Shown here: in pieces, positions 1 to 62,203 of the stretch
Layout: every line of letters begins with the position of its first letter
Numbering within the stretch: the first letter of the stretch is position 1
Source: Mayamaea pseudoterrestris
Lineage: Eukaryota
Length of the DNA: 64,000 nucleotides
Direction of reading: 5' to 3'
Assembly: GCA_027923505.1 (NCBI GenBank)
Contig: BROI01000006.1
Span: 248,001-312,000 of the forward strand
Position numbers and translations under genes: made by a program
The notes under the pieces: model-generated
Database searches by the model: none
What the model saw: only the letters and a program-made list of their open reading frames with translations
Told to the model about the DNA's origin: nothing

Positions 1-106
1 CGCGGCGCGCCATCACATAAATCCGATTCGTCCGACGACCAAGCTGCTGCATTAGCCTTGCCATTTGGAATCGATACCGTATCTCCTTCATTCCTAGAAT
101 CACATC

Positions 107-1372: not shown

Positions 1373-1894
1373 CAATTTATCTGTCACGCGACGAGTGCAA
1401 CTACTGCGCGCCACACAACTAGCAGTTGCTTTTCCGCAACAAAAACTGTGTTTTTGTAAAGGGTCTTATTACCGCTTTTGTCTTGGCAACCATCGTTGCC
1501 TTTCTTCTGGCTTGGTTGGCACATCAAAATCTATCTCAAATTTGGAGTACCGGTGCGTCTTTCTGTGACCTGACCGTTGATGGCGTCACGCCAAAAGCAT
1601 GGATACTTAACGCAACCGAGCGAGCATGACCATGTGCGACATCGCCTGCCGTGCAACTCTTTTCAGCGACACAACCGAGGACAGCATCGACACCTAATAC
1701 AGTAGTTGCCATCCTCCATACGTATTCTCCTCATCAAATCTCCTTTCTAGCGCTTTACGATTGACGGAAAAGGAGTTTTATAAGGGGAGAAAGTTTTAAT
1801 TGCGAGCTTTATCGCCAAGAAGAGGGCCGAATTCGACTTGACAGCTGCCTCCATCTCAAACTCATAGTTTAGCTAATCGCTTGCAAAACAAAAC

Positions 1895-21512: not shown

Positions 21513-21874
21513 TAGTGAAATATCAAGATGTCAAAGCGTGACAAGTTAAAGGAGGTGCGGCGCGGCAGAGATGGAGGCTCTTCTAGCGTTGCTCCCTAAT
21601 CTTTCCTGCGTATTGGATCTTTTTAGTTGTCGCCTCACAATTAGATTGGCAGCATCCTTCAAGATTCGTTTCAACGTTTTAAATCACAGGCTCTCGTTAA
21701 ATGTGTGCAAGTGCATCGGAGACCATGAGAGAGGTCGTTCGAAGAACGGGGCACGAGTGACGAGACCGAAGCATGGCGACGAAACCGCACCGAGTTAGAT
21801 GCATGACGAAAACAGCTTGACATATGAACCGAACTCGAAATGATTCGGAGAAGCAGATCTGGAGTCAAATTTGT

Positions 21875-22073
21875 GACGTAATTGACACTGGCACTCGTTT
21901 CGTACTCATGCCTTTTGAAGTGATTGACACTGGCACTCGTTTCATAGTATTGCCTTAAGACGTAATTGACACTGGCACTCGTTTCATACTATTGCCTTAC
22001 AACGTAATTGACACTGGCACTTGTTTCATACTATTGCCTTATGACGTAGTTTTCACTGACACTCGTTTCATTA
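21875..22073. repeat. 42-bp tandem minisatellite, ~4.7 copies
   Basis: Unit GACGTAATTGACACTGGCACTCGTTTCATACTATTGCCTTAN begins at 21875, 21917, 21959, 22001 and 22043. Confidence 0.95.
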
Positions 22074-22192: not shown

Positions 22193-24015
22193 ATGACAGG
22201 CCTTTATGTGCTCTTTTGCATGCTGTACGGATTAACAAACTGTCAGGGTCAATATCTTTACAAAGACATTCCAAATGCTAACGACTACGTCAGAGAATAC
22301 GAAGGTGTCGAACCGACCGACTTTTTCGACTTTCAGTCGCCAGGAATTGTAGAGTTTTACTCGCCCCATTGCGTAAGTATAGTACAGGGATGAATATAAA
22401 GCATTGAGTGATTGAATCTAATGCAAATTATTTACTTTTGTTCTACTTTTAGGCACATTGTCGACAATTCACCACGACGTACGTTGAAATTGCAAAGGCG
22501 ACACGCCAAGTCAACTCCAACATTAACTTTTATGCCGTTTCTTGTGGATCGCACTTGGAATACTGTCGCAAAGTCGATATAAAAGGTTATCCGTCCTTCT
22601 TTAAAATTACTGGTGGCGGAGGCAATGATCTGCAATCGGTAAAATCGGGAACTCGAGGCGTGGATCATACCTTTGTCTTGTCGCTCTTTGACAAGAATGC
22701 TGCTGCCGTTGAAGATACACCGACAAACTTCCAGACAGCCATGACCGCACTAAAACTGCAAACCAACAGGACGTACATAAGACCTGCCTTGAACCGCATT
22801 GGACCTGGTCGCTTGAATCCGCAGACAAACAAGGTGGAGGAAGTTCCATCCACAGGAGCGACCGTTTCCATGAAGGCAAACATCAAAGGCACAAGTGAGG
22901 AAATGCAACGCAGAGCGACAATACTGGAGAGTATTCGAAGAGCCAAAGGCCAACGTAAAGCGGAACAAGTCAAATCTGTTATGGAAACGACAAGTGAGCT
23001 GCCATACCAAAAGCTTGTACCACTCACCGGATTGCGAGAAAAGATTCCATTGTTTCGTCGCACTGTGAAACTGTCTCTCGAAGAGGAACTTATAATCGAC
23101 ACGGCAGTGTCGTTTGCATACAGTTTGAAATATGAAGTCTTTTTGAGAGGCCAGGAACTATCCGAGTCGGAAACGAAGGCGTTAAAAAACTGGCTAATCT
23201 TACTGTCAGTTTCGCTGCCCCAGGAGTGGATCTTGACCACTTTGGTGGACGATGTTTTGCGGAACGTGGATGGCCTTGTCAAGAATCCTGCGTTACTAGA
23301 CCACATTATGAAGGACCGGCAAATTGTTCGAACGGCTTGGTCGCCGTCGTGTCGCCGCGTTGTTGGGGGCGGTGGCTACACTTGTGGCTTTTGGAAGTTG
23401 CTGCACACTGTCACTGTGGGTGTCGCTGAGCATCGCGGCGGAAAGACGGTGTTTGCGCAGTCTTCCAACACTTTTTCGCCTGCGGAAACTGCCGATATAA
23501 TTCGTGACTTTATTGCAAACTTTTTTAGGTGTCGTACATGCGCCGCCCACTTTATTGCCAGCTACGACGATTGCTCCTTTGACCGATGCGATCGACTCGT
23601 GGAAGACGCCGAGGCTACATCGGACTCGGACTGGAAGGAGGTTGCCGTGTGGCTTTGGAAGTTTCATAATGCGGTGAACATTCGTGTATGGAACGAGCGC
23701 AACGAAAATGGTGTACGCAAGTCCGGAGACGAACTAAAGCTGGTGTGGCCGTCGCTGGCCGATTGCTGGACTTGCTATCGAGGTGATGGGAGCTGGGATC
23801 AAGATGCCGTCTTTTTGCATCTCGAACGCAGCTACTGGCCTGATGCTGAGATCGATTCTCGGACAGCGCGACTATTGACCTTTTCGTCGCAAATACAGCC
23901 GCCAAACGCTATTCGAATATATGCTCTCATCTGCATACTGATTGTGTTGGTTGGCTATCGGTCGGCGTCGCCGTATATCAAGGGGCAGATATATGGCCCG
24001 AAACGCTCCGATTAG
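22193..24015 (+). CDS. QSOX: Quiescin sulfhydryl oxidase (QSOX, thioredoxin + Erv/ALR), copy 1; exons 22193-22372 and 22453-24015
   Basis: Signal peptide; spliced VEFYSPHC-AHC; YTCGFWKLLH, FFRCRTCAAHF, WLWKFHNAVN, WP...CWTC; C-terminal TM helix. Confidence 0.88.
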
Positions 24016-24167: not shown

Positions 24168-25835
24168 TTATACTGCAGAGTCGTAATGATTATTGTAGCC
24201 ATTATGTGAGAACGATTCGTCAGTTTTCTTGTGTCGTCCACTCAGCCATCGCTTTTGCCGCCTTGCATACCAGCCAGCGCCGCCGCCAACCGCAAAGAAC
24301 AAAGATGCCAAAATAAAAGGCGACGATTTCCTTCCACCAATACTTGAGACAATATCTTCCTTCTCAATTGGAACCTCGTTTAATCCAAGTTCGTTGCGGT
24401 ACCTCTCCGAAAGTTCATCTTCCGGCCAGTACTCCAGTCGCAAGAACTTGTACATTGTTTCATCGTCCCATCCTCCATGCTCATCCCAACACTTTGGACA
24501 GCTTTGGCGACTTGGCCATCGCTTTTCTATTTCGTCTTTTGGTTGTGGTTTCCAATTTTCTCGTTGGGCCTGTTCCTGCAGCAAACGTACATTTACGGCA
24601 TTATGCGTCTCCCAAAGCCACACCGGGAGCTGCATCCATTCCGTATCGCTATACGTGGCATGAGACAGGCGGGTGCATCGGTTCAAGGAGCATTGATCAA
24701 ACGCGGTGATAAAGTTGACGCGACATACTTCGCAACCGAAAAAGCTTTCAACAAAGTTGCGAATCTTGAGAGCTGCATCCTCCGTGTGTATCACCAGTTC
24801 GCCATCGTCGGTTGAAATCATCATGTTGTATTCAACGACACCAACCGTCACCAAGTGAAAGAGCTCCCAAAGTCCACATGTATATCCGGCTACAGGGTCG
24901 CCATGAGTGCAGGCTGGACTCCACTTTTTCCGTGGCGGTGGATGCAATTGAAGAACGCTTTCCAGATTGCTCTCAGATTGAACAATGTTTTCAAAGTTAT
25001 CCAACAACGCCTTGATGAGCTTTTGTATTTGCCAAGATGGTGGCATGGTAATGTGCAGCAAGTCAAGCCACTCTTTGAGATGAGTTTGCGTCGTATTTGT
25101 CAAAGGACCAGCGCTGTCCATAAAGACTCCATTTCGCAAGGCAAAGTCAAGCGAAAGCCATGCATCCTCAAACACGTTTTGTTTGGTACGAACATGGATC
25201 GTGTCTGCAAGACTGTCAGGCCGACTCTTGTCTCGTCGTTTCCTATTGACTGACACTGGCGCATCCAAGTTCAATTCCGCCGTATGCAAGCCTAAATCGC
25301 TCAAGACTTGAAAGGGGTGTAGCTTAAAGTACTTTGCCGAACCAGTCGCATTCGTGGCACCAGCGTTAAATAGACGGATCACTGGATATGAATGAATTCC
25401 AAACGTTTTGCATAGAGGTCGATACACGGCGCAGGAGACGGCGTATATTTTCACGTCCACCTTTTCTGGCTGCTGAAGAGCAAGACTTTGAAGCGTTTCA
25501 CCAAAGTCAACGTAGTGGTCTCGAAAGTGCTGACAGTGCGGACACCATGGAGCGTAGAATTCCACGACTCTCGGTCCATTGTTCGGTCCAAAGATAAAGT
25601 TTGGTCGTTTGGGATCGTCACCTTTCTTTGGTCGATACTCTATCACTGGGCTGGCTTCCTCTCCCAGTGGAAGGTAGAGGTAGTTCTTCGCAACGTCGTC
25701 GTTGTCCTCCTCCTCTTCCTCTTCGGCAGCTTCAGCACTTTTGTCGTCATTGGTAACTATCTCTTCCTCGTCAGATACACATGATTGAAGGAAACATAGA
25801 ATCAAGAGCAAGAGTAGGTACTTCTTCATGGTCAT
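24168..25835 (-). CDS. QSOX: Quiescin sulfhydryl oxidase (QSOX), copy 2
   Basis: Signal peptide; VEFYAPWCPHC; YTCGLWELFH, FFGCEVC, WLWETHNAVN, WP...CPKC; C-terminal TM helix. Confidence 0.92.
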   Translation of the reverse strand: MTMKKYLLLLLILCFLQSCVSDEEEIVTNDDKSAEAAEEEEEEDNDDVAKNYLYLPLGEEASPVIEYRPKKGDDPKRPNFIFGPNNGPRVVEFYAPWCPHCQHFRDHYVDFGETLQSLALQQPEKVDVKIYAVSCAVYRPLCKTFGIHSYPVIRLFNAGATNATGSAKYFKLHPFQVLSDLGLHTAELNLDAPVSVNRKRRDKSRPDSLADTIHVRTKQNVFEDAWLSLDFALRNGVFMDSAGPLTNTTQTHLKEWLDLLHITMPPSWQIQKLIKALLDNFENIVQSESNLESVLQLHPPPRKKWSPACTHGDPVAGYTCGLWELFHLVTVGVVEYNMMISTDDGELVIHTEDAALKIRNFVESFFGCEVCRVNFITAFDQCSLNRCTRLSHATYSDTEWMQLPVWLWETHNAVNVRLLQEQAQRENWKPQPKDEIEKRWPSRQSCPKCWDEHGGWDDETMYKFLRLEYWPEDELSERYRNELGLNEVPIEKEDIVSSIGGRKSSPFILASLFFAVGGGAGWYARRQKRWLSGRHKKTDESFSHNGYNNHYDSAV

Positions 25836-26021
25836 TGTCGGCGAGACATCATGGTGGAAATAATGCGGCTCGTTCGCGATCGCCGTTCATCGGACTGTTA
25901 GTACCGGTCGGACGTTTGTAGTCTACGTATGCATTAGTCTCATGCACGCGATTATGTTGTAACGAGCTCACTATTAAGTGTATGTAGCCAAAACAACTGT
26001 TGAGTAGTGTGATAACATACA

Positions 26022-34821: not shown

Positions 34822-37800
34822 AACATTCTTATTTCAGGTGCGCTATAAGATAAGATGACTGCCCTGGTGTCTCTGTGGACTGCTTTGGTGATAACTTGTC
34901 ACCAGTCTCAGATGACATTCAAACACACCTACAGCAAGCCCTGTAGGTGCCCAAATTACACCAGCATGGGGCCAACATCATTATTCAGGCTGCGCTACAA
35001 GATGGTAGGCTTGCCTGGTGTCTCAGGGGATGGCAATGTATTTGGTGACAACTTGTCACCAGTCTCAGCCCGCAGATGCCATGACATTCAAACACACCTA
35101 CAGCAAGCCCTGTAGGTGCCCAAATTACAACTGAATGGTGCCAACATCATTATTCAGACTGCGCTACAAGATGATAAGCTTGGCTAATGTCTCAGGGGTT
35201 GGCAATGTATTTGGTGACAACTTGTCACCAGTCTCAGCCCGCAGACGCCATGACATACAAACACACCTATAGCAAGCCCAGTAGGCACCCAAATTACACC
35301 TGAATGGTGCCAAGATCATTATTCAGGCTGCGCTACAAAATGGTAGTTTTGCCTGGTGTCTCGGGGGATGGCAATGTATTTGGTGACAACTTGTCACCAG
35401 TCTCAGCCTGCAGATGCCATGACATTCAGACACTCCTACAGCAAACCCGGTAGGTGGCAAAATTACAACAGCATGGTGCCAACATCATTATTTAGGCTGC
35501 GCTACAAGATGGTAAGCTTGGCTGATGTCTCAGGGGTTGGCAATGTATTTGGTGACAACTTGTCACCAGTCTCAGCCAACAGATGCCATAACATACAAAC
35601 ACACCTACAGCAAGCCCTGTAGGTGCCCAAAATACACCAGAATGGTGCCAACATCATTATATAGGCTGCGCTACAAGATGGAAGGCTTGGCTGGTGTTTC
35701 AGGGGATGGCAATGTATTTGGTGACAACTTGTCACCAGTCTCAGCCTGAGATGCCATGACATTCAGACACACCTACAGCAAGTCCTGTAGGTGCCCAAAT
35801 TACAACAGAATGGTGCCAACATCATTATTCAGACTGCGCTACAAGATGGTAGGCTTGGCTGGTGTCTCAGGGGATGGCAATGTATTTGGTGACAACTTGT
35901 CACCAGTCTCAGCCCAAAGATGCCATGACATTCAAACACACCTACAGCAAGCCCTGTAGTTGCCCAAATTACAACAGAATGGTGCCAACATCAATATTCA
36001 GACTGCGCTACAAGATGGTAAGCTTGGCTGGTATCTCAGGGGATACCAATGTATTTGGTGACAACTTGTCACCAGTCTCAGCCCGCAGATGCCATGACAT
36101 ACAAACACACCTACAGCAAGCCCTGTAGGTGCCCAAAATACACCAGAATGATGCCAGCATCATTATTCAGGCTGCGCTACAAAATGGTAGGCTTGGCTGG
36201 TGTCTTGGGGGATGGCAATGTATTTGGTGACAACTTGTCACCAGTCTCAGGTCGCATATGCCATGACATTCAGACACACCTACAGCAGGCCCGGTAGGTG
36301 TCCAAATTACAACTGAATGGTGCCAACATCATTATTCTGACTGCGCTACAAGATGGTAAGCTTGGCTGGTGTCTCAGGGGATGGCAATGTATTTGGTGAC
36401 AACTTGTCACCAGTCTCAGCCTGCAAATGCCATGACGTACAAACACACCTACAGCAAGCCCAGTAGGTGCCCAAATTACACCAGAATGGTGCCAACATCA
36501 TTATTCAGGCTGCGCTACAAAATGGTAGGCTTGGCTGGTGTCTCGGGGGATGGTAATGTATTTGGTGACAACTTGTCACCAGTCTCAGCCTGCAGATGCC
36601 ATGACATTCAGACACACCTACAGCAGGCCCGGTAGGTGCCCAAATTACAACAGCATGGTGCCAACATCATTATTCAGGCTGCGCTAAAAGATGGAAGGCT
36701 TGGCTGGTGTCTCAGGGGATGGCAATGTATTTGGTGACAACTTGTCACCAGTCTCAGCCCGCAGATGCCATGACATTCAGACACACCTACAGCAGGCCCG
36801 GTAGGTGCCCAAATTACACCAGAATGGTGCCAACATCATTATTCAGGCTGCGCTACAAGATGGTAGGCTTGCCTGGTGTCTCAGGGGATGGCAATGTATT
36901 TGGTGACAACTTGTCAACAGATTCAGCCTGCAGATGCCATGACATACAGACACACCTATAGCAGGCCCTGTAGGTGCCCAGATTACACCAGAATGGTGTC
37001 AACATCATTATTTAAACTGCGCTACAAGATGGTAAGCTTGGCTGGTGTCTCAGGGGATAGCAATGTATTTGGTGACAACTTGTCACCAGTCTCAGCCCGC
37101 AGATGCCATGACGTACAGACACACCTACAGCAAGCCCTGTAGGTGCCCAAAATACACCAAAAAGATGCCAACATCATTATTCAGGCTGCGCTACAAAATG
37201 GTAGGCTTGGTTGGTGTCTCGGGGGATGGTAATGTATTTGGTGACAACTTGTCACCAGTCTCAGCCCGCAGATGCCATGACATTCAGACACACCTACAGC
37301 AGGCCCGGTAGGTGCCCAAATTACACCAGAATGGTGCCAACATCATTATTTAGGCTGCGCTACAAGATGGTAGGCTTGGCTGGTGTCTCAGGGGATGGCA
37401 ATGTATTTGGTGACAACTTGTCACCAGTTTCAGCCTGCAGATGCCATGACATTCAGACACACCTACAGCAGGTCCAGTAGTTGCCCAAATTACACCAGAA
37501 TAGTGCCAACATCACTATTCAGGCTGCGCTACAAGATGGTAGGCTTGGCTGGTGTCTCAGGGGATGGCAATGTATTTGGTGACAACTTGTCATGAGTTTC
37601 AGCCTGCAGATGCCATGACATTCAGACACACCTACAGCAGGTCCAGTAGGTGCCCAAATTACACCGGAATGGTGACAACATCACTTCTCAGGCTGCGCTA
37701 CAAGATGGTAGGCTTGCCTGGCTCCTCAGGGGATGGCAATGTATCTGGTGACAACTTGTCACCAGTCTCAGCCCGCAGATGCCATGACATTCAAACACAC

Positions 37801-40800
37801 CTACAGCAGGTCAGGTAGGTGCCCAAAATTCACCAGAAAGGTGCCATTATCATGATTTAGGCTGCGCTACAAGATGGTAGGCTTTGCTGGTGTCTCAGGG
37901 GATGGCAATGTATTTGGTGACAACTTGTCACCAGTCATATGAAATATTCAACAGATCGTCGACCCATACACAGAGGTAGTCGTAGCTGCAGATGCCATGA
38001 CATTCAAACACACCTACAGCAGGTCAGGTAGGTGCCCAAAATACACCAGAATGGTGCCAACATCATGATTTAGGCTGCACTACAAGATGGTAAGCTTGGC
38101 TGATGTCTCAGGGGTTGGCAAGGTATTTGCTGACAACTTGTCACCAGTCTCAGCCCGCAGATGCCATAACATACAAACACACCTACAGCAAGCCCAGTAG
38201 GTGCCCAAATTACACCAGAATAGTGCCAACATCATTTTTGAGGCTGCGCTACAAAATGGTAGGCTTGGCTGGTGTCTCAGGGGATGGCAATGTATTTGGT
38301 GACAACTTGTCACCAGTCTCAGCCCGCAGATGCCATGACATACAAACACACCTACAGCAAGCCCAGTAGGTGCCCAAATTACACCAGAATGGTGCCAACA
38401 TCATTATTCAGGCTGTGCTACAAGATGGTAGGCATGGCTGGTGTCTCCGGGGATGGCAATGTATTTGGTGACAACTTGTCACCAGTCTCAGCATGCAGAT
38501 GCCATGACATGCAGACACACCCACAGCAAGCCCGGTAGGTGCCCAAATTACACCAGAATGGTGCCAACATCACTATTCAGGCTGCGCTACAAAATGGTAG
38601 GCTTGGCTGGTGTCTCAGGGGATGGCAATGTATTTGGTGACAACTTGTCACCAGTCTCAGCCCACAGATGCCATGACATTAAAACACACCTACAGCAGGC
38701 CTGGTAGGTGCCAAAATTACAACAGCATGGTGCCAACATCATTATTCAGGCTGCGCTACAAGATGGTAGGCTTGGCAGGTGTCTCAGGGGATGGCAATGT
38801 ATTTGGTGACAACTTGTCACCAGTCTCAGCCTGCAGATGCCATGACATTCAGAAACACCTACAGCAAGCCCTGTAGGTGCCCAAAATACACCAGAATGGT
38901 GCCAACATCATTATTCAGGCTGCGCTACAAGATGGAAGGCTTGGCTGGTGTTTCAGGGGATGGCAATGTATTTGGTGACATCTTGTCACCAGTCTCAGCC
39001 TGAGATGCCATGACATTCAGACACACCTACAGCAAGTCCTGTAGGTGCCCAAATTACAACAGAATGGTGCCAACATCATTATTCAGACTGCGCTGCAAGA
39101 TGGTAGGCTTGGCTGGTGTCTCAGGGGATGGCAATGTATTTGGTGACAACTTGTCACCAGTCTCAGCCCGCAGATGCCATGACATTCAAACACACCTACA
39201 GCAAGCCCTGTAGTTGCCCAAATTACAACAGAATGGTGCCAACATCATTATTCAGACTGCGCTACAAGATGGTAGGCTTTGCTGGTATCTCAGGGGATGG
39301 CAATGTATTTGGTGACAACTTGTCACCAGTCTCAGCCCGCAGATGCCATGACATACAAACACACCTACAGCAAGCCCAGTAGGTGCCCAAATTACACCAG
39401 AATGGTTCCAAGATCGTTATTCAGGCTGCGCTACAAAATGGTAGGCTTGGCTGGTGTCTCGGGGGATGGCAATGTATTTGGTGACAACTTGTCACCAGTC
39501 TCAGCTAGCATATGCCATGACATTCAGACACACCTACAGCAGGCCCGGTCGGTGCCCAAAATACACCAGAATGGTGCCAACATCATTATTCAGGCTGCGC
39601 TACAAGATGGTAGGCTTGGCTGGTGTCTCAGGGGATGGCAATGTTTTTGGTGACAACTTGTCAGCAGTGTCAGCCCGCAGATGCCATGACATTTAGACAC
39701 ACCTACAGCAGGCCCTTTAGGTGCCCAAATTACACCAGAATAGTGCCAACATCATTATTCAGGCTGCGCTACAAGATGGTAGGCTTGGCTGGTGTCTCAG
39801 GGGATGGCAATGTATTTGGTGACAACTTGTCAACAGATTCAGCCTGCAGATGCCATGACATTCAGACAAACCTACAGCAGGTCGAGTAGGTGGCCAAATT
39901 ACAACAGCATGGTGCCAACATTATTTTTGAGGCTGCACTACAAGATGGTAAGCTTGGCTAGTGTCTCAGGGGATGGCAATGTATTTGGTGACAACTTGTC
40001 ACCACTCTCAGCCTGCAGATGCCATGACTTTCAAACACACCTACAGCAGGCCCTGTAGGTGCCCAAATTACACCAGAATAGTGCCAACATCCTTATTCAT
40101 GCTGCGCTACAAGATGGTAGGCTTAGCTGGTGTCTCAGGGGATGGCAATGTATTTGGTGACAACTTGACACCAGTCGTAGCCTGCAGATGCCATGACATT
40201 CAAACACACCTACAGCAGGCCCGGTAGGTGCCCAAAATACACCAGAATGGTGCCAACATCATTATTTAGGCTGCGCTACAAGATGGTAAGCTTGGCTGGT
40301 GTCTCAGGGGATGGCAATGTATTTGGTGACAACTTGTCACCAGTCTCAGCCCGCAGATGCCATGACATTCAAACACACCTACAGCAGGCCCGGTAGGTGC
40401 CAAAATTACAACAGCATGGTGCCAACATCATTATTCAGGCTGCGCTACAAGATGGTAGGCTTGGCTGGTGTCTCAGGGGATGGAAATGTATTTGGTGACA
40501 ACTTGTCACCACTCTCAGCCTGCAGATGCCATGACATTCAAATACACCTACAGCATGCCCTGTAGGTGCCCAAATTACACCAGAATAGTGCCAACATCCT
40601 TATTCATGCTGCGCTACAAGATGGAAGGCTTGGCTGGTGTCTCAGGGGATGGCAATGTATTTGGTGACAACTTGTCACCAGTCTCAGCCCGCAGATGCCA
40701 TGACATTCAGACACACCTACAGCAGGCCCGGTAGGTGCCCAAATTACACCAGAATGGTGCCAACATCATTATTCAGGCTGCGCTACAAGATGGTAGTCTT

Positions 40801-43800
40801 GGCTAATGTCTCAGGGGATGGCAATGTATTTGGTGACAACTTGTCACCAGTCTCAGCCCGCAGATGCCATGACATTCAGACACACATACAGCAAGCCCTG
40901 TGGGTGCCCAAATTACACCAGAATGGTGCCAACATCCTTATTCAGGCTGCGCTACAAGATGGTAGGCTTGGCTGGTGTCTCAGGGGATGGCAATGTATTT
41001 GGTGACAACTTGTCACCAGTCTCAGCCCGCAGATGCCATGACATTCAGACACACCTATAGCAGGCCCTGTAGGTGCCCAGATTACACCAGAATAGTGTCA
41101 ACATCATTATTCAGACTGCGCTACAAGATGGTAAGCTTGGCTGGTGTCTCAGGGGATAGCAATGTATTTGGTGACAACTTGTCACCAGTCTCAGCCCGCA
41201 GATGCCATGACATTCAGACACACCTACAGCAGGCCCTGTAGGTGCCCAAATTACACCAGAATCGTGCCAACATCCTTATTCATGCTGCGCTACAAGATGG
41301 AAGTCTTGGCTGGTGTCTCAGGGGATGGCAATGTATTTGGTGACAACTTGTCACCAGTCTCAGCCCGCTGATGCCATGACATTTAGACACACCTACAGCA
41401 GGCCCTTTAGGTGCCCAAATCACACCAGAATGGTGCCAAGATCATTATTCAGGCTGCGCTACAAGATGGTAAGCTTGGCTGGTGTCTCAGGGGATATCAA
41501 TGTATTTGGTGACAACTTGTCACCAGTCTCAGCCCGCAGATGCCATGACATTCAGACGCACCTATAGCAGGCCCTGTAGGTGCCCAAATTACACCAGAAT
41601 GGTGCCAACATCATTTTTTAGACTGCGCTACAAGATGGTAAGCTTGGCTGGTGTCTCAGGGGATAGCAATGTATTTGGTGACAACTTGTCACCAGTCTCA
41701 GCCCGCAGATGCCATGACATACAAACACACTTACAGCAAGCCCTGTAGGTGCCCAAAATACACCAGAATGGTGCTAACATCATTATTCAGGCTGCGCTAC
41801 AAGATGGTAGGCTTGGCTGGTGTCTCAGGGGATGGCAATGTATTTGGTGACAACTTGTCACCATTCTCAGCCCGCAGATGCCATGACATTCAGACACACC
41901 TACAGCAGGCCCTTTAGGTGCCCAAATTACACCAGAATGGTGCCAACATCATTATTCAGGCTGCGCTACAAGATGGTAGGCTTGGCTGGTATCTCAGGGG
42001 ATGGCAATGTATTTGGTGACAACTTGACACCAGTCGTAGCCTGCAGATGCCATGACATTCAGACACACCTACAGCAGGTCGAGTAGGTGCCCAAATTACA
42101 ACAGAATGGTGCCAAAATTATTTTTGTGGCTGCACTACAAGATGGTAAGCTTGGCTGGTGTCTCAGGGGATGGCAATGTATTTGGTGACAACTTGTCGCC
42201 AGTCTCAGCCCGCAGATGCCATGACATTCAGACACACCTATAGCAGGCCCTGTAGGTGCCCAGATTACACCAGAATAGTGTCAACATCATTATTCAGACT
42301 GCGCTACAAGATGGTAGGCTTGGCTGGTGTCTCAGGGGATGGCAATGTATTTGGTGACAACTTGTCACCATTCTCAGCCCGCAGATGCCATGACATTTAG
42401 ACACACCTACAGCAGGCCCTTTAGGTGCCCAAATTACACCAGAATAGTGCCAACATCATTATTCAGGCTGCGCTACAAGATGGTAGGCTTGGCTGGTATC
42501 TCAGGGGATGGCAATGTATTTGGTGACAACTTGACACCAGTCGTAGCCTGCAGATGCCATGACATTCAGACACACCTACAGCAGGTCGAGTAGGTGCCCA
42601 AATTACAACAGAATGGTGCCAAAATTATTTTTGTGGCTGCACTACAAGATGGTAAGCTTGGCTGGTGTCTCAGGGGATGGCAATGTATTTGGTGACAACT
42701 TGTCGCCAGTCTCAGCCCGCAGATGCCATGACATTCAGACACACCTATAGCAGGCCCTGTAGGTGCCCAGATTACACCAGAATAGTGTCAACATCATTAT
42801 TCAGACTGCGCTACAAGATGGTAAGCTTGGCTGGTGTCTCAGGGGATAGCAATGTATTTGGTGACAACTTGTCACCAGTCTCAGCCCGCAGATGCCATGA
42901 CGTACAGACACACCTACAGCAAGCCCTGTAGGTGCCCAAAATACACCAGAATGATGCTAGCATCATTATTCAGGCTGCGCTACAAAATGGTAGGCTTGGC
43001 TGGTGTCTCAGGGGATGGTAATGTATTTGGTGACAACTTGTCACCGGTTTCAGCCTGCAGATGCCATGACATTCAGACACACCTACAGCAGGTCCAGTAG
43101 GTGCCCAAATTACACCAGAATGGTGCCAACATCACTATTCAGGCTGCGCTACAAGATGGTAGGCTTGGCTGGTGTCTCAGGGGATGGCAATGTATTTGGT
43201 GACAACTTGTCACGAGTTTCAGCCTGCAGATGCCATGACATTCAGACACACCTACAGCAGGTCCAGTAGGTGCCCAAATTACACCAGAATGGTGCCAACA
43301 TCACTACATAGGCTGCGCTACAAGATGGTAGGCTTGCCTGGTTCCTCAGGGGATGGCAATGTATCTGGTGACAACTTGTCACCAGTCTCAGCCCGCAGAT
43401 GCCATGACATTCAAACACACCTACAGCAGGTCAGGTAGGTGCCCAAAATTCGCCAGAATGGTGCCAACATCATGATTTAGGCTGCGCTACAAGATGGTAG
43501 GCTTTGCTGGTGTCTCAGGGGATGGCAATGTATTTGGTGACAACTTGTCACCAGTCATAACCTGCAGATGCCATGACATTCAGACACGCCTACACCAGGC
43601 CCAGTAGGTGCCCAAATTACACCAGAATGGTGCCAACATCATTATTCAGGCTGCGCTACAAGATGGTAGGCTTGGCTGGTGTCTCAGGGGATGGCAATGT
43701 ATTTGGTGACAACTTGTCACCAGTCTCAGCCCGCAGATGCCATGACATTCAGACACACCCATAGCAGGCCCGGTAGGTGTTCAAAATACACCAGAATGGT

Positions 43801-44640
43801 GCCAACATCATTATTTAGGCTGCACTACAAGATGGTAAGCTTGGCTGGTGTCTCAGGGGATGGCAATGTATTTGGTGACAACTTGTCACTAGTCTCAGCC
43901 CACAGATGCCTTGACACTTAATTGCCCATATAACATGCCATGTATAAACCCAAATCACACCTGAATGGTGCCACTCTCATTATTTGGTATGCGCTGCAAA
44001 ATGGTATGCTTGACTGATGACCTAGTAGACTGCAATGTATTTGGTGATAACTTGTCACCAGTCTCAGCCCGCAGATGCAATGACATTCAAACACACCTAC
44101 AGCAAGCCCGGTAGGTGCCCAAATTACACCAGAATGGTGCCAACATCATTATTCAGGCTGCGTTACAAGATGGTATGCCTGGTTGGTGTCTCAGTAGACT
44201 GCAATGTGATTGGTGACAAGTTGTCACCAGTCTCAGCCCGCAGATGCCTTGACACTTAATTGCCCATATAACATGCCATGTATAAACCCAAATCACACCT
44301 GAATGGTGCCACTCTCATTATTTGGTATGCGCTGCAAAATGGTATGCTTGACTGATGACCTAGTAGACTGCAATGTGACTGGTGAGAACTACTCACCAGT
44401 CTCAGCCCGCAGATGCCATGCCTTTCAAATGCCCATACCTTGAGCCATGTGTATGCCCAAATGAAGCCAGCATGGTGCTAACATCCTTTCTTAGATGATG
44501 CGCTACCAGATATGTTGAGTGACTGGTGTCTTGGTAGACTGCAATGGGATTGTTGATAACTTGTCACCAGTCTCAGCCAGCAGCTGCCAGCCATTTAAAT
44601 GCCCATACATTGAGCCATGGCTATGCCCAAATCAAGCCAG
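34822..44640. repeat. 169-bp tandem satellite array, ~58 monomers (~9.8 kb)
   Basis: Strict 169-nt period of GGCAATGTATTTGGTGACAACTTGTCACCAGTCTCAG...; consensus ~51% GC by my count; degenerate monomers at both ends. Confidence 0.98.
37934..37985 (-). mobile_element. Short Ty1/copia-like reverse-transcriptase fragment inserted in the satellite
   Basis: Non-repeat insert (net +44 nt); the minus strand translates YDYLCVWVDDLLNISYD, matching the copia RT [Y/W]VDD motif context. Confidence 0.6.
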
Positions 44641-53447: not shown

Positions 53448-55133
53448 TTACGGTTCTGCAGACGGTGGTCGATCCAACGGAGTCGGCGGTTCCCACTTCA
53501 AAAATGCGGGATTGCACATGCGAAACTGCTTGCTAAGGTACAGAACGCATGATAAAATCAGAAACGGAAAGTGCAACACACGAAGCAAACCGTTCGGATT
53601 GACATTGTACAACGTACTCTTGCTTGATATATTCTTGAACAGTGTCTTGCTTGACATGGACAACGTGAAGTCCCTTCCATACCTTGATCATGTCAAGATA
53701 CTGTAAAGTCGATATGATATCCTCTACTTTAATTCCCGTCTGATCTGAAATATCCGCAATTGTAATATTTTGCGTCATGTCATAGCTATCCAGCAGATGC
53801 ATCAACACATAGGTCCAGTAGCTGCGATAGGAAAGCTTGCCAAGATCTGATAGCGGCTTTTCAGGACTACCAGTCTTGCCCTCGCGCTTTGTTATTTCAT
53901 ATGAAAGGGAAATGATGAATTTGCCGTATCCAGACTGCTGATACTGAGGCAATGTGAGGATGCATGCCAAATTGTAGCTCTCCGTCGAGTACTGTGACGA
54001 TACAAAAGCAGTGTGTAAGCATCATGTTTTAAAGGAATTTGATCGAAGTTGTCATCATAACTCACCTTCTCCTTGGAAAAGTACCCGACAATGTGCGAGC
54101 CTTCATCGTCCACTCGCGTAACGATATAAAAGTAAAAGGGCGTAGTATCATAGTAAAGCGTCTTGTGGTCTAGAAACAGCTTGGCAATGAGGCATAGCTT
54201 TTGACAGTAAGCAGGATAAGCCTTGCCGTCCAATTCGTACACTGCAATGTCAGCTTCCCTGTAGATCTCCGTTCCAGGCGGTCGGCGACATTTGCACGTC
54301 TCCTTATGATGTAGATACGTCCGCGTCTTTCTCATGTACGAAAGGCAGTATTCGCAAACATAGAGCGTTCCAATGTTTGAATAATCCTCGGGAAAGGGTG
54401 AATAGTACCACGACTCGACTTCCCAGCCTCCCATGACAATCTTTTCAACATTCTTCACCTTGGTAGCTTCCTCGTGTTCCTTTTCTCCGGCTGGGTCGCC
54501 GTGAAAGTTCCCTCCGCCGACGTATACTGGCGTGTTATTGTCAGTGCCGCCGTTCATTGATTCGTCCGTCATGGTATGATGAATATCGAGCTCATCGCTA
54601 GCGTTACTCGTGCCATTGGCAAGCCTGGTTCGCACCAATCGATCATCCGCTGCTTCCAATGTTTCCGCTTGCAGAGTGTCTAGCTCGAATCGATCCAAGG
54701 TGATCCATTGATCGAGCCGACGATCGTGACCAACGTAGTGCACATAATACTCAATCTCGTCAGCCTTTAAACCATCGACGGCTCCAACTGGGAGGCGCTT
54801 GTTGGGATTGACGCGCTGCAAAGGACGCCGCTCGACTATGACAGCTTCCAAAGTCGATGGATCTTTCAATGGCGGTATACTTTCATCTGGAACAGCAGCA
54901 GCGGCAGCAACTGGAACAACAACAGCAGCGCCCTGCTCAGGTGTAACAGCCTCCAGCTCGGTCGTTTCAGTCGTCACTCTAGCTGGTAGAACAGTCGGCA
55001 CATCATCGTCTGCTTGGGGAACGATCGTCTCCGCAGCTCGAATCAATTTGACGTAGCAGTGGTCGTTCAAGTTAGGAATAACATTTATTAACGTGTCCGC
55101 TGCGCTTTCTTCCTTTGTAGTCATCATATCCAT
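53448..55133 (-). CDS. MYST-family histone acetyltransferase (Esa1/MOF-like); exons 55133-54066, 53991-53618, 53532-53448
   Basis: Tudor-knot YYVHYVGHDRRLDQW, C2HC finger WYYSPFP..CEYC, KLFLDHKTLYYD, NLACILTLPQYQ..GYGK and GSPEKPLSDLG. Confidence 0.95.
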
Positions 55134-55546
55134 GTGCTTCTTGCTTGAGAATGATGTTGTACCGGTAAAGTTGAAAAGTGGCCGCGATTATTCTATCGCG
55201 GCGCGGCGCGGCGCGGCAGTTTCTTGGCGCGCCAAACCCGAGTCGTAGCGGTTAGTCTTGTTTCGATCAGCTATGGTGCGTCTGCCCAGCTTGCGTATTG
55301 GAAGGGTCAGTGAGCCTTTTGTATATATTCATACGATTCACTACAAAGCTCTGCTCGTAGTCCTGTTTATTCTCTCAAGCTGGGTAATACATGTCACGTA
55401 GGTATATATACATCTCTAAATCTAAAAATAAAGTTTACCGCGTCGAGAACGAAACAGCCGTCGTCATTCAAGCGAGCAATAAAATATGTCGGGTCTATCA
55501 TCGAGTGCTGCGCGCGGTCAGCACGGAAAGTCCTTCATACACGACG

Positions 55547-58500
55547 CTAAAGTGTAGGTTCAGGAAAGAGTTGTTTCCAGGCTTCAAGGCCAATGCTTTG
55601 GATTGTGCGATCCTTGTTTGCCGCCAATAAGCGCATCGCATCCTCGCGGTCCCGGTATTCACCCTCATCGGTTAATTGAGGGAACCGCTCAGCCATGAAG
55701 AAGCGTATGTAACTCCTCTTCGCGGCTGCTTCCGACTCTTCTTCCAAGCGGCGAAAAAAGGAAAGAGTTGCCTTGAGACGAACCAGCTCACAATACGTAT
55801 TCCTTGTCCTCCAAACTTCAAAATCCAGACATTCTTCGTACGGAACCAAGGGACTTGGAGGAATGCGACGCATAATCGGTTGAAAATTTAGCGACTCGTC
55901 ATGTCCTTCCGTCTCGACGCGGTCGTCGTTATCTAGTATGACTTCTCGTGGATCGCTCTCAAGCGATTCATAATTTCGCGCCGTTAATCGACACAATTTA
56001 TCTTTCGTCTTGCTTTTCATTGGTTCAATGAGAAAGGCAAAATCAACAGAGCTGTGGATGCGACGACGAAACAACTCGGTCTTGCGCGCGACCACTTTTT
56101 CAACCATCGGAACTGAAAAACGATCAGTTGCAAAATGAACTGCGTCTTCACAGAAACCTGCTTGGACGCGCTTGAAAAATTTCCGCAGTAAAATAACCGA
56201 CTTTTCCGATGCCAAGGTTGGCGGCGCCATCAACCAGTCACTACTGTCGTCACTGGTGTTAAATGTAACAGTAGTAAAGTCCGAGTACTCCTGCACTTGG
56301 TCAAACATTTCACCTCGCAATACAGCCATCATAATTGTGCCGCCATGACGGACAGTCAGTTTGTTGATAGGAAAACTCGACTCGCGGTCCGCGACTATTT
56401 TGTTTGGTTCTAAACACCTGCGCTTTCTTGTGCCGGGTTTGACACTTTCCAGCTCATCACTACGAAGTGGCTCTGAAGCGCAATAAACGTCGGACCTCTC
56501 AGGCATATCCGCACCGACGTGTTCCGAAGAAGAAACTGCTAGTCCGTCCTTTATTCGACTGCCGCCACTCCCCTCGGCGGCACTCATTTCACTCTTTCGT
56601 GTAACATCGCCTTTGACCGGTTCATTCTGCTTTGTAGCAGGTAGATTCAAGAGCTGGCAAAGTCTTTTCAGCGACAATTTGTTTTGAAATCCGAGAAGTT
56701 GAATTTCTTCGCGTGGGCAAATGTCTCGCGGCAATTGCTCCTCATGGTCGAGAGTCTGTTCGTCATCTGCCTCCGATTCAACAACGCTGTAGTCGCTGTC
56801 ATCGTCACCGAGTTCCGGAATGTCACTGCCGCCGAGACAAAGCCAATGGGCATATGGAACGTCGGGTGGATGCTGCGCGTCGCCCGACGTGAGATCGGTG
56901 TCAACAGGTTCAGCTCCAGGATCCTCTGTAAGAGGTGTCTCGAAACTGTTTTGAGCGCCGATTTTCCGATGAAATGCAGTAGTCGAGTATGTGATTCCGT
57001 CACAACCAAGAACAGTCCCGTCGTCGATTCCGTGTTGGTGTTGTTCAACGTCACGGAAACTGCATCCGTCAGTTTCCCGAACTGCTCCTGTGTGTCCCTG
57101 GATGACATGCCAGTCTATACACTCGGGCCTGATCAGGAGGACTCGCTTGCTGGAAATAAACACATAATGTACGGTGACTGTGAGTCATGCCAGGAAAAGG
57201 ATCAGCATAATAATTAATGCAATCAGACACTTACTTTCGCTCAAGAGTATACTCTGCAATCACTTCAGAATCTATCTGGGCACGAAAAAACTTATCAATG
57301 CTTCCGCCGAGTAGGCGAACTGTTGTTTCTATGTCGTCAACACTCATTCCCGTTCTCGCTGAAATATCTGGAAGAGGCATCCCTGTCCTGCAGCAACTGC
57401 TTGCCACCACATTCGCTACGATAAGTTTCCAATAACTTGTATATGCTTGCAATCCTAAAGGCGAGAGCGGCTTTTCTGGGCTGCCTCCTTCTTTCGTCTC
57501 TCGCTTCGTCAGCTCATAGGATAGTGAAATGAGAAATTTTCCGTAGCCCTTCTTTTGATGCTGGGGGAGCGTCATGATGCAGGCGACGTTATGTCCATCC
57601 GCAGAGTGCGTTTCTTTTGAAAAGAAACCGACAAAGGAAGCGCCGTGAACATCGAGTTCGGTCAAGACATAGAATTTAAAGCGTTTCACATCGTAACAAA
57701 TGGTCTTGTTTTCCAGGAACAGCTTCGATAAGAGACACAGGCGTTGACAATAATCCTTTTCATTTTGACCAATGACTTCAAAAACCATTATGTTGTCCTC
57801 GAGGTAGATAAGATTTCCCGGAGGGCACCGACATCGGCACGTCCATTTGTGCCGCCGGTAGATTGAATCCGACTCCGAATGCGCAAGGCAGTACTCACAA
57901 ATGTGCAAGGTATCGCACTCGTATTTCTGCGGAAATGAACTCTCGTACCAAGCTGGCGTCTCCCAACCTCCAATAACAACCTTATCAATCTTCTTTATTG
58001 GTATTCTCTCCACTTTATTATCACCTCTCCGTTTTGGGAGTGACATACGTCGAAGCTTTGTCAAGTCCAAGTCATCGAGAGTAACCCAGCGATCCAACTT
58101 ACTATCAGTCCCCTTCAAGTGAATGTAGTATTCGATATCATTAGCAGAAAGTCCTTCGACATCTTTGCGCACCTTTGTGCGCAGTCGAGGTCGAAGGCCC
58201 CAGATAACAATAGGGATAGTGTCCGGAAGATCATTATCAGGTTGATGACAAATGTAAATCTTCTTCCAGTGGATGTGACATTCATCCATGATACCTAAAG
58301 GAGCATTCATCATAGGCGCAATGTTCGTTGAGCCTTCACCATGAAGTAATGCATTTTCTGGATTGCAGTTGGCCTCTCGCTGCGCTGCGCACTCGTCGAC
58401 ACCGCCAAGTTTGGACATTTTGGGAAACTCATCGGGTAGGCTTTTCGTGTTGGAGTCTAAGCATGTGTCTCTACTTTTGCATTCGTCCTTGGTCGAGTGC

Positions 58501-61418
58501 GGTCTTGCTACCGGTGGTTCCAAAGTTATAGAAATCATTTCAATTTGCTGCTCTGCTGCTTCTTCGTTGGGTAATGTCGGGAGCATCGTCGATGATGCAG
58601 TCGGAAGGGCTTCGTCCGCCGTCCTCCGAATCGAAACAAAGTCGGCTGCCACTCCACTCGAGGCACAATTATTTCCACTCGCCAACAAGTGCTTGCTCGC
58701 AACTTTGCGCTTTTTGTGCGAGCGACCACTTGGTCGACCGTCTAACTCAGAAACAATTGTCTTGGAACTGTCGGTTACCAGGCGCTTTTTCCGGCGTTCA
58801 CGCTTCTTTCTGTTGGTCTGGTAAGCATTCGGTGACGCCTCACGCCCATGCGCTGCTGCTTCACCTGTTAATGCTTCACGACTGCCAAGAGGCGACTTCA
58901 TTGTTGGTCCAGGGAATTCGCCCGTGTCGTTACTCGTGTCATCGAACTGTCTTTTCTCATTGAGACGCGGCGACGCTCTGGTCATCCTGCTGATAGCAGG
59001 CTTGTGAAGAATGACCTCGTCGGAAATAGGTAGTTCCTTCTCGAGTTCTTCCGGTGTCTCCTCGTTGCATGTTGGCACTTCGTTTGCGTCTCCAGTATTG
59101 CCGATAGTGTCGAACGCGCTTCGTCTACTATTGGTCAACCCCCACTGTAAACGTTGAGCTTTTCGTGAGGCATCCGCCTGAGACCTTGGCAAAAAGATCG
59201 GCCTGGCCGTGCCTTGCTTGGAGGCTATTTTTGTCAGTCCGGGGACACGCTTGTTAAGCGTTGATTTCTTTTTTATCTTGTTCAAACGCTCTTGTGCAAC
59301 ACGGCGCTCGCTGGCGAACCGGACGGATCTCATTGCTTCTTCGCCTGTCATTTTGTCATGTCGTGTGCTAAAACCCGTCTCGTCCAATTCTGGTTGCGCA
59401 CCCGAAAGGATGATTGAAACCTCGTCGGAGGCTATTGCTTCGACTGCTCGAAAATCTTCCTCTTCAACCTCTGGCTGTTTGTTTGGCGCGATAGTTGAAG
59501 CGTCTGCGCCCTTCGAAACATATCTTGTCGACACATCATGACCAGTCAAAGCAGTGGCCTCGCCCTCATTCGGCGCACCCACCACACCGACGGTCGCCTT
59601 GTGAGCATTTGAATTCGAGACTTGATGAAAAGCCGGCACGTCATGTGGGTCAGTGTGATCGAGCGCGTGCACCGAGGTATTATTATGTTCTAATGTCTTC
59701 ACACAGCTGATGTTCGTTGCTGGCTCCTGCTGAAGTACAACCCCAGACACACGACTTGATCGTCGCAGCCCTGACGAAACATCTAGCTTCTTTGCAGGCG
59801 TATCTTTCTCCGGCGAACGGCTGAAGTTCTTTGCGGATGCAGTGTCATCTTGTACGCCGCTCCGATCCGAAGCATATGGCTCCATCTCGATATCAGCCTG
59901 TGAAGACGGCCCGACTGATGAATCCACAGAAATTGTTGTAGATTTCTCCTTCCCACCTTGTCGTCCGGCTCGGTTACTTGTGTTTGCCAAAGAGATCGAC
60001 TTCAATGATGAGTCACCATTATCTGCAGTGTCGACCGTAAAGCAAGGTGAACGAGGACGTTCAGTCTCACCTGCGTTAATGTAGATTTCCTTTTGCAAAA
60101 CATCATGAGTTACTTCAGTGGAGGAATCTGGGCTCGTCATTGCGCTTTGTTTACCGGAAGCATGTGCTTCTGATATCTCAGGCCTGGATTGATACGCGGA
60201 TCTGTTTAGTTGTCCAGCCGGCCTTTGCGATACAGTCTCCAACGAGGTCACACGAGCGTGATTCTTCGATTTAGGTACGTCATCAACTCGTCTACCGGCA
60301 ATGTATGCTTCTTGAATGGCAGGGTTGGGGGTTGAAATGCTTTTCTTTGGTCGCCCACGCGGCCGTTTCGGAATAGTATCTGAAGCACGTGAACAAGATT
60401 GTTTCTTCGCAATAGCGTCATTATCGACCTTGATTTCGTAGTAGTCGCTATAATCCTCTTCTGGCGCGGAGCAGCTTGCATAATCTGGGTCGTTCGTGTT
60501 CATTGAGCAGTACCAGTTTGAATTAATGTCCAGAGGCTGAGTGAAAAACCGCCACTTCTCGCATTTATCGCATTGAACCATAAGAGGCCGATCATCGAAT
60601 AAACTTGTGTCTATGTCGTCTTTCTGGAGTGATTGTCCCGAATAGTCAAAGCGGGGCGATTTGCGAGTAGAGAATTGTTTCGCTGGCACCTGCATGGCAC
60701 TCTTGCGCTTCGACCGATGGGAGTTTGACACATTGTACTTTGATTTTATATTCGGATTTGTACTCGGGAGCGAGTCATTGCTGCGGTCCTTGTGCAAAAC
60801 CAAAGTCGGTGCTTTATGTTGAGGCGCCAAAGTCAATTCCTCGTTTTGCGCAACCTGCTCAACGTTAGCGCCGGCTAATGCGTCGCTTTCTAAATTCCCA
60901 TGGCTCCTCAACAGGCTGGTAAACTTGGTTGTAAATTGTTGGCTGTCTGTACTGAATTGTTGATTGTTTGTAGAATGCGTTTTCGGGGTTGGATTTGATA
61001 AGAAAACATCATCCGCCGGAGTAAAATCAAGTGTCTCAAGTTCTTGCAAAGACAGAAACCTCGCGTTTCGCTGCATCTCTTGAGACCCGAGGCATGCATT
61101 TGCGTATTGATCTTGATGCATCTGCTGATCTTGATCGATGTCTAATATGATTTCTTCGCCTGCCTGTATATCGCGTTGATGTAGTGCTTGTTTGTATACG
61201 GCTTCATTTGAAGCGGACGACTCGCGGCGCGCATGACGCCCATGCCGGTTCGTCGCCAATGCGTCAGTGGAAGCTCTTTTCTTCATTTTCGTCTCAAGCG
61301 AAACCATTTCACTTTCTTCTTGTCCCTTTCGTTCTCGACGTGCTCGCTGGCGAAGTTTGGCGGTTTGGTGTTGTCGCTCGAGACGACGAGCATGTTCGTC
61401 TGTAATTTCCTCCGTCAT
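55547..61418 (-). CDS. Large (~1928 aa) MYST acetyltransferase with zf-CW and AT-hook; exons 61418-57235 and 57149-55547
   Basis: VQCDKCEKWR..WYC.MN..SCSAPEE (zf-CW), KRPRGRPK (AT-hook), YYIH...LDRWV, CEYC, KLFLENKT, NVACIMTLPQHQKKGYGK and GSPEKPLS; the GTAAGT..CAG intron 57150-57234 joins the two ORFs in frame. Confidence 0.85.
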
Positions 61419-62203
61419 TGTTGTTTGTCCGCTTTTTCAACTTTGAAAATAAGTGTCCTGGTCAGCCAGATAGTTATCAATCAGAGACTGGGTCTTATCT
61501 ATTGGTGCTGCATATAAATAGATGATAAGTTTTGGCTGCGCTGCAAAGCTCCTCATCAAGGGCTGCGCCATGGTGGCGACGGAATCGCAGATTGCAGATC
61601 CACGATGCGTCATTGCGGATCCAATTTGCGTCATCATGACGTCATTCTACTTGGCCGTCGCGCGCGCGAGGCGGCCTTCGCAAGTGTCACTCGTCGCAAT
61701 GCTGTTCTTCGACCATGGTGGACGGCCGTCATCCTCACTTTGAACCCTGAATGAGCATCTACCAACCGCCATGTCACCGCCATGCTTGTCTGAATCCCTT
61801 GGCGGCAAAAAATTGTCAGATCTTTAATCGCTTTAGGATCTTGGTGGAATTTATTGTCGGCGCAATCGTCGGGGCAAAATGCTATCGCTATCATGCTATC
61901 CGTATCGAACACGGAACACACAGAACGCGAGACGACGAGACATAATTGCAGTCCATGACCAGCGGTGTAGATTCAATCCCCCGCAATGCTATCAGAATCA
62001 GCATCGTACTTCATATTATAATTGCAAAGCGGTGACTCAATCATCATGCGCGTCCTCTATAACTCTTCAACTACAGACTACAATTTGTGCTCTACAACGT
62101 AATTCGCGGATATCATTCTATGAGTAGACTTTAATAATTAGACTCATAATAATGGCTAAAATACTATCTTATATGCATGCAACATTAACATTTGAACGAC
62201 GCT

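Follow-up and report, generated by a model that had tools for sequence, protein, structure and literature searches.

We have analysed 64,000 nucleotides of a contig of the pennate diatom Mayamaea pseudoterrestris (BROI01000006.1, positions 248,001 to 312,000 of the forward strand in assembly GCA_027923505.1); this whole stretch is called the window below, and all coordinates refer to it. The window is gene-dense and contains, flanked by ordinary genes, a 169-bp satellite array. In one unit of this array we have found 49 nt of foreign sequence, whose origin from the reverse transcriptase (RT) gene of a Ty1/copia-type retrotransposon is supported, and which was probably left there as filler in a one-off repair event near a conserved palindrome. 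The features on which the argument turns are these:

34912-44427, no strand assigned: satellite array of a 169-bp unit, 56.1 copies according to Tandem Repeats Finder (TRF), about 9.5 kb, with 55 complete units between 56 anchors
37775-37987, plus strand: the insert-bearing unit m16, the sole unit of 213 bp; it is of a rare monomer type, with the markers GGTCAGGTAGG and CATGATTTAGG
37916-37932, no strand assigned: conserved palindrome GGTGACAACTTGTCACC, 7 nt upstream of the insert, with 40 exact copies in the array
37940-37988, minus strand: the 49-nt insert, a putatively captured fragment of a Ty1/copia-type RT gene, whose codons 37987-37940 read SYDYLCVWVDDLLNIS

The spacing of the 56 anchor sites is 169 throughout except for two values of 168 (the units starting at 35579 and 38833) and a single value of 213, and past the TRF end at 44427 diverged satellite units extend to about 44600. 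The length of m16 corresponds to 169 + 44, so that the monomer phase is kept. When all the units were scanned against the consensus, one foreign patch was found among the 55 complete monomers, and the only other units flagged were two diverged ones at the right edge of the array. No stretch of at least 11 nt from the insert recurs in the window beyond the array, and within the array no match exceeds 9 nt. A unique insert in one off-period satellite unit is thus confirmed, including the claim of the original prediction, made from the letters alone, that this is the sole large break in the period. The prediction was also right in placing the insert just past the palindrome. No exact copy of this palindrome exists elsewhere in the window outside the array; its part of the unit varies least (1.06 versus 3.31 non-consensus bases per column) and as single-stranded DNA it is computed to form an 8-bp hairpin of -7.5 kcal/mol (z -2.8). 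The insert beside it is a hint that the palindrome may be a fragile or stalling site.

In the frame proposed originally the minus strand of the insert translates as HGICSYDYLCVWVDDLLNISYDW up to a stop codon, or in a longer form as ...SYDYLCVWVDDLLNISYDW up to a stop codon, and the natural open frame across the insert is of 31 aa only. YxDD is the catalytic motif C of reverse transcriptases. A degenerate 16-codon pattern drawn from the insert gave no match in viral contigs and none in metagenome contigs, and a 9-codon pattern gave none in viral contigs; an 8-codon pattern, CVWVDD[LF][LF], was found at 28 metagenome loci, two of which (L015 and L011) lie in long RT open reading frames (ORFs). 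The remaining 26 loci were dropped as they look like chance matches, with no RT context around them. The L015 ORF (563 aa, RVT_2 at E 3e-21) reads ...SDLWIKDVGDSYDYLCVWVDDLLCISHDSAAFFKML..., and that of L011 has 313 aa and RVT_2 at E 4e-27. BLASTP of the 31-aa frame of the window gave 16/18 identities to L015 (E 2e-10) and 12/17 to L011, of which only the residues outside the selected eight (SYDYL, IS.D) count as independent, because the pattern had required those eight. With blastn the insert matched L015 and L011 only in a core of 17/18 nt, so their relationship to the insert is one of protein sequence, and neither is the donor. In L011, the ORF preceding the RVT_2 ORF has weak, sub-threshold matches to the integrase core rve (17.9 bits, cut-off 32.6) and to a chromodomain (22.4 bits, cut-off 25.1), which, if real, would fit the copia gene order. 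The chromodomain match stands at the end of this upstream ORF (L011 3-1328; E 1.2e-4, below the Pfam cut-off), and such domains are more familiar from elements of the gypsy type.

A search with the L015 ORF found 1644 relatives, and the family figures that follow come from the 120 listed. Each of the 120 contains PF07727 and shows VDD at the position aligned with the insert; in most cases the protein has 1000-2100 aa and its contig about 6-7.5 kb. Their sequence at the site is roughly adpdlWirdagd-.YEY[VIL]CV[YW]VDDL[LM]..[SM]-kdP..FF, and those closest to the insert agree with it at 14/16 (P0003) and 13/16 (P0002) positions. Ty1/Copia polyprotein is the name given to one member of the cluster, and the relatives also include a transcript of the diatom Entomoneis paludosa. 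A search limited to residues 136-200 of L015 found only P0002 and P0003, so that the donor is not among the proteins of 987-2815 aa in the collection searched. In the reverse direction, when five polyproteins were compared with the whole window by tblastn, four had their best match on 37987-37940 (E 3.5e-4, 7e-4, 0.011, and 0.79) and the fifth, P0108, matched the insert at E 2.6; no other RT-like match was found in the window with these five. Furthermore, a family profile of 240 columns, built from the 120 proteins and run without filters against all 3103 six-frame pieces of the window, matched only the minus-strand piece 38023-37931 (E 7.3e-4), the next best being at E 2.5.

The source of the 49 nt was also sought in public sequencing runs, where contigs of four runs from two studies were aligned to 37850-38070. 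Eight runs had been listed, the highest share of the 13 sampled words of 37880-38040 being 0.31, and no RNA run was among the listed runs sharing these words. The contigs that cover the insert match 37940-37988 and then continue in non-satellite sequence on both sides, with 255 letters before 37940 (run X6) and behind 37988 (X1 and X6), and with shorter loose ends before 37940 in X3. No letter differing between these donor contigs and the window is listed within 37940-37988. Translated by hand in the frame of the original prediction (30 letters per side), the loose ends read SDLWIKDAGD upstream and DDPAAFFKML downstream (K for M in X3), and both peptides match the family consensus of the L015 relatives. 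As the frame is open across the loose ends, the 49 nt are part of a longer coding sequence existing elsewhere in those genomes. The summed depth of the bins 37946-37977 was 13.1, 16.6, 25.5, and 3045 in the four runs, versus satellite bins of up to 13150, 17693, 56776, and 1.67 million. The satellite itself is thus very abundant in all four (summed contig depth 1e4 to 1.7e6, versus 13-3045 for the RT fragment), and in run X5 one loose end adjoining satellite sequence resembles a telomere-type repeat (AACCCT-like), suggesting that the satellite may also sit near chromosome ends.

All these data support the assignment of the insert to a Ty1/copia-type (Pfam RVT_2) RT gene, covering the [YW]VDD box, and they bear out the RT motif seen originally on the minus strand, which now has RVT_2 relatives, an open donor frame and a profile match at this spot only. 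That an unrelated filler merely looks like an RT motif is close to refuted, even if a Pfam scan of the 23-aa insert peptide at E up to 10 found no family, the 31-aa peptide retrieved a single protein from a whole library, P0001 (repetitive, with CTWCDETT repeats, and rejected as unrelated), and a 9-nt match to the array turns up somewhere along the insert in 35% of shuffles; against such a coincidence stand the 16/18 residues shared with an RVT_2 ORF, the family profile, and the fact that an open RT-like frame extends to either side of these 49 nt in the contigs that contain them. The presence of the catalytic motif itself in the fragment is probably a matter of ascertainment, as it was by this motif that the fragment could be recognised.

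The junctions and their surroundings involve five further features:

37934-37939, plus strand: GTCATA, the left junction edge, a satellite variant with only 2 copies in the array (37934 and 43554)
37986-37988, no strand assigned: CTG, microhomology at the right junction, 3 nt common to donor and satellite; the donor loose end starts after 37988
40173-40181, plus strand: satellite variant AGTCGTAGC, with further copies at 42032 and 42539; its place in the monomer is that of the right end of the insert
43395-43563, plus strand: sister unit m49, with uninterrupted GTCATA-AC-CTGCAG (43554-43567), within the paralogous block 42719-43563
37988-38156, plus strand: unit m17, right of the insert, a mosaic whose first 84 columns carry the rare-type markers and whose remainder is closest to other units

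The sister unit, which reads GTCACCAGTCATAACCTGCAG / GTCATAACCTGCAG at the site, gives the recipient as ...CACCAGTCATA-AC-CTGCAGATG, while in m16 the same ...CACCAGTCATA is followed by the 49 nt and then by CAGATG, so that two satellite bases (AC) were lost and the net gain is 44 nt. The left junction (37939/37940) is blunt and GTCATA is purely satellite, because the donor contigs have other letters before 37940; it had been proposed as microhomology at the junction, and this part of the original prediction falls. At the right junction, where the sister unit reads ...AACCTGCAG, the CTG is counted as shared because the donor match runs through 37988; the predicted start of the insert at 37940 stands, and its end moves from 37977/37985 to 37988. 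Just upstream of the CTG, AGTCGTAGC (37978-37986) matches the satellite variant in register (9/9 to the variant, 7/9 to the consensus). The chance of a 9-nt match in register is far smaller than that of a match anywhere along the insert, 1/20000 shuffles, in a test chosen after the match had been seen, and we read this similarity as a homology-guided choice of the joining point. The stretch AGTCGTAG, which had been taken for microhomology with satellite variants, belongs to the donor and encodes S-Y-D-Y as in the relatives, and only its in-register resemblance to a satellite variant was retained. We also considered a target-site duplication, in which the second AGTCGTAGC would be a copy of the recipient's AGTCATAAC, and rejected it, as the donor contigs carry AGTCGTAGCTG contiguously and the relatives encode SYDY there.

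No long terminal repeat (LTR), target-site duplication or further element sequence was found at the junctions. This bears on the possibility that the 49 nt are the relic of a full-length copia insertion reduced by later deletions to an internal piece, for which it could be said that copia elements are the main repeats of the M. pseudoterrestris genome (PMC9724779). Such a history would require two deletions, each ending within 2 nt of the insertion point and together restoring the phase, and would have erased every LTR remnant and target-site duplication, and we see only a slight chance of it.

An assembly or polishing artefact, by which a chimeric read or a local re-assembly placed the 49 nt in the satellite, is somewhat less improbable and still unlikely. 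The genome comes from a Nanopore assembly in which two assemblies were merged and polished (PMC9724779), and satellites are hard to assemble. However, satellite flanks the insert on both sides and the monomer phase is kept within 2 nt; as no difference from the donor contigs is listed over 49 nt, the insert is not sequencing noise; and a random in-tube chimera would not be expected to keep the register or to join at CTG. No listed contig of the public runs spans 37850-38070 or joins satellite to insert, a gap that proves nothing either way.

With regard to the array around the insert, the block 36930-37987 is paralogous to 42719-43563 (identity 0.95-0.98, with one extra unit in the first block), and the best paralogue of m16 is the sister unit 43395-43563 (identity 0.976). 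To the right of the insert, m17 is only 0.911 identical to the right neighbour of the sister unit versus 0.953 to its own best match, the unit at 40184, which follows a AGTCGTAGC variant. The markers in the first 84 columns of m17 are otherwise found only in the two rare-type units, and m17 holds two private substitutions. The sister block had been described as the empty site; this is correct for the left flank, which runs uninterrupted through m49, and it fails for the right flank, which is not collinear. The occurrence of the rare monomer type on both sides of the insert (m16 and the first 84 columns of m17) was upheld. As the right-hand unit restarts the same rare monomer type, the array has been put out of register, a rearrangement that fits break repair or template switching within a tandem array.

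Some other observations concern the array itself. Between 38092 and 38135, m17 has four substitutions in about 30 nt, two private and two common to few units, at 100-150 nt from the junction, and this cluster may have been left by error-prone synthesis during repair, or by drift alone. Several units within 41029-42887 are identical or nearly so (41029 and 42719, 1.000; 42043 and 42550, 1.000; 41874 and 42381, 0.988), which indicates recent three-unit block duplications inside the array. At its right edge (43902-44600) the array decays: two units, at 43902 and 44240, resemble the core at about 75% and one another at 96%, and they alternate with a core-like unit, in what looks like an older two-unit higher-order repeat.

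From all this we infer that a chromosome break or a stalled fork arose within a single satellite unit, shortly after the conserved palindrome, and was repaired by end-joining or template switching, a 49-nt Ty1/copia-type piece serving as filler. The piece would have been either free complementary DNA (cDNA) or a copy of a chromosomal element, taken from the part of the RT coding sequence that surrounds the [YW]VDD box. Its left end would have been joined bluntly to ...GTCATA, with the loss of two satellite bases, and its right end through CTG, aided perhaps by the imperfect similarity upstream (AGTC..AGC). The same event, or a later exchange, may then have shifted the register of the array, and the fragment would since have remained as a passive scar. 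We consider a single capture of this kind, of copia RT filler during the repair of a break or stalled fork near the palindrome, probable. The templated capture put forward in the original prediction therefore survives in its outline, since the junctions fit break-repair capture, with its microhomology details corrected.

Several points weigh against this account. The paralogy to the sister block stops at the insert, and a plain insertion into an m49/m50-like site does not account for the lack of collinearity on the right. The partner at the right junction is ambiguous, with CTG, a G alone, and an imperfect AGTCGTAGC-TG all candidates for the shared stretch, and both junctions come from this assembly alone. 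The donor context was obtained from contigs of public runs, the loose ends were translated by hand, and the matches to L015 and L011 include the eight preselected residues noted above. Free cDNA is not distinguishable here from a chromosomal template. Finally, the Ty1 cDNA inserts of yeast, with which this case is compared below, measure 140 bp to 5.6 kb versus 49 nt here, the mitochondrial fillers being of 33-219 bp (PMC1976456).

A very different meaning had been offered for the insert, namely that it is a spacer-like memory of transposable elements (TEs) or a source of small RNAs. Spelled out, this would mean that the satellite takes up pieces of TEs at one set position beside the palindrome, and that its transcripts give rise to small RNAs against the RT core. 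The insert does lie 7 nt from a conserved palindrome, its source is the best conserved stretch of the element family, and small RNAs of diatoms have been studied (PMC4247016). Nevertheless, the array has one foreign patch in 55 complete monomers, a fixed position cannot be shown from a single case, and the junctions, with their 2 nt lost, are like those of ordinary end-joining, nothing in them suggesting a dedicated machinery. We regard this idea as very unlikely, and the original prediction is not sustained on this point. The same low credence applies to its broader form, in which palindrome-bearing satellite arrays would be recurrent sites of breakage or stalling that catch retroelement cDNA, the snippets seeding small RNAs that silence the whole copia family; if that were true, and the arrays were transcribed, it would amount to a trap like a PIWI-interacting RNA (piRNA) cluster built on a satellite in a diatom. 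What we describe is most likely a repair scar of a known type, and no new biological system has been shown by it. Its interest lies elsewhere, as DNA repair outcomes and satellite dynamics have been little described in diatoms, and the insert is a unique tag within an otherwise uniform array, of use for checking assemblies and for dating the turnover of the array.

As for the genomic setting, the genome of M. pseudoterrestris was assembled from Nanopore plus Illumina reads and contains 19% of repeats, mainly Ty1-Copia (PMC9724779). None of the 14 long ORFs of the window that were scanned matched an RT or integrase family. The Tsr1 ORF of the window aligns to the M. pseudoterrestris protein at NCBI with 0 mismatches and one gap of 24 aa, which is intron-like. 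Two adjoining ORFs on opposite strands, 22453-24015 (plus) and 24168-25886 (minus), each combine a thioredoxin and an Erv1/Alr domain and appear to be sulfhydryl-oxidase-like paralogues; shortly before them, at 21874-22071, a 42-bp tandem repeat (4.7 copies, 86% matches) lies between ORFs. Two close genes of the minus strand, 53892-55187 and 57231-61436, would encode MYST-family acetyltransferases, the larger also with a CW-type zinc finger.

The donor can be compared with the CoDi elements, the Ty1/copia-like retrotransposons of diatoms, whose genes are ordered protease, integrase, RT, and RNase H (PR-IN-RT-RH; PMC2806351). The donor family has RVT_2 as they do, the weak upstream integrase-core match of L011 would fit the PR-IN-RT-RH order, and one relative is a diatom transcript; the comparison is one of domain content and, through L011, of a possible gene order.

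Several known systems resemble the locus as a whole to different degrees. The piRNA clusters and the CRISPR arrays are repeat loci that store fragments of invaders, and the likeness, a foreign fragment between repeats, is superficial, as here the fragment is single, there is no regular spacer architecture and no machinery is known. Polymerase-theta end joining and microhomology-mediated break-induced replication (MMBIR) make templated insertions and small tandem duplications. Their products share with our case a copied patch, microhomology of 1-3 nt, imperfect similarity nearby and a duplicated adjoining unit, but their templates are usually near the break, whereas the donor here is a dispersed element, and the repair pathway is hardly assignable from a scar like this one.

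A closer parallel is the filler DNA of non-homologous end joining in plants and mammals, including patches of organelle DNA (Gorbunova and Levy 1997; Salomon and Puchta 1998; Ricchetti et al. 1999; all as cited in PMC1976456), to which the related organelle-DNA patches at breaks in a paper on nuclear mitochondrial DNA (NUMT; PMC2567098) can be added. Like these, the insert consists of tens of nucleotides of unrelated genomic DNA at a junction that also shows microhomology and a small deletion; unlike them, its donor is a retrotransposon coding region and its recipient is a tandem array, and it is because of this recipient that the register of the array was shifted. Finally, induced breaks in yeast take up Ty1 cDNA and mitochondrial DNA, with microhomology and with 1-5 nt lost or gained (PMC1976456, citing Moore and Haber 1996, Teng et al. 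1996, and Yu and Gabriel for the capture of Ty1 cDNA). As in yeast, a Ty1/copia-type piece would fill a repaired break, with little or no homology at the junctions, few bases lost and no signature of an integrase. In contrast to the yeast experiments, where the break is an induced HO break, the event described here is a natural one in a diatom satellite and its fragment is internal to the RT gene. It is a clean natural case of retrotransposon sequence as patch material, in which the donor, the recipient, the empty paralogue, and the junctions are all readable.

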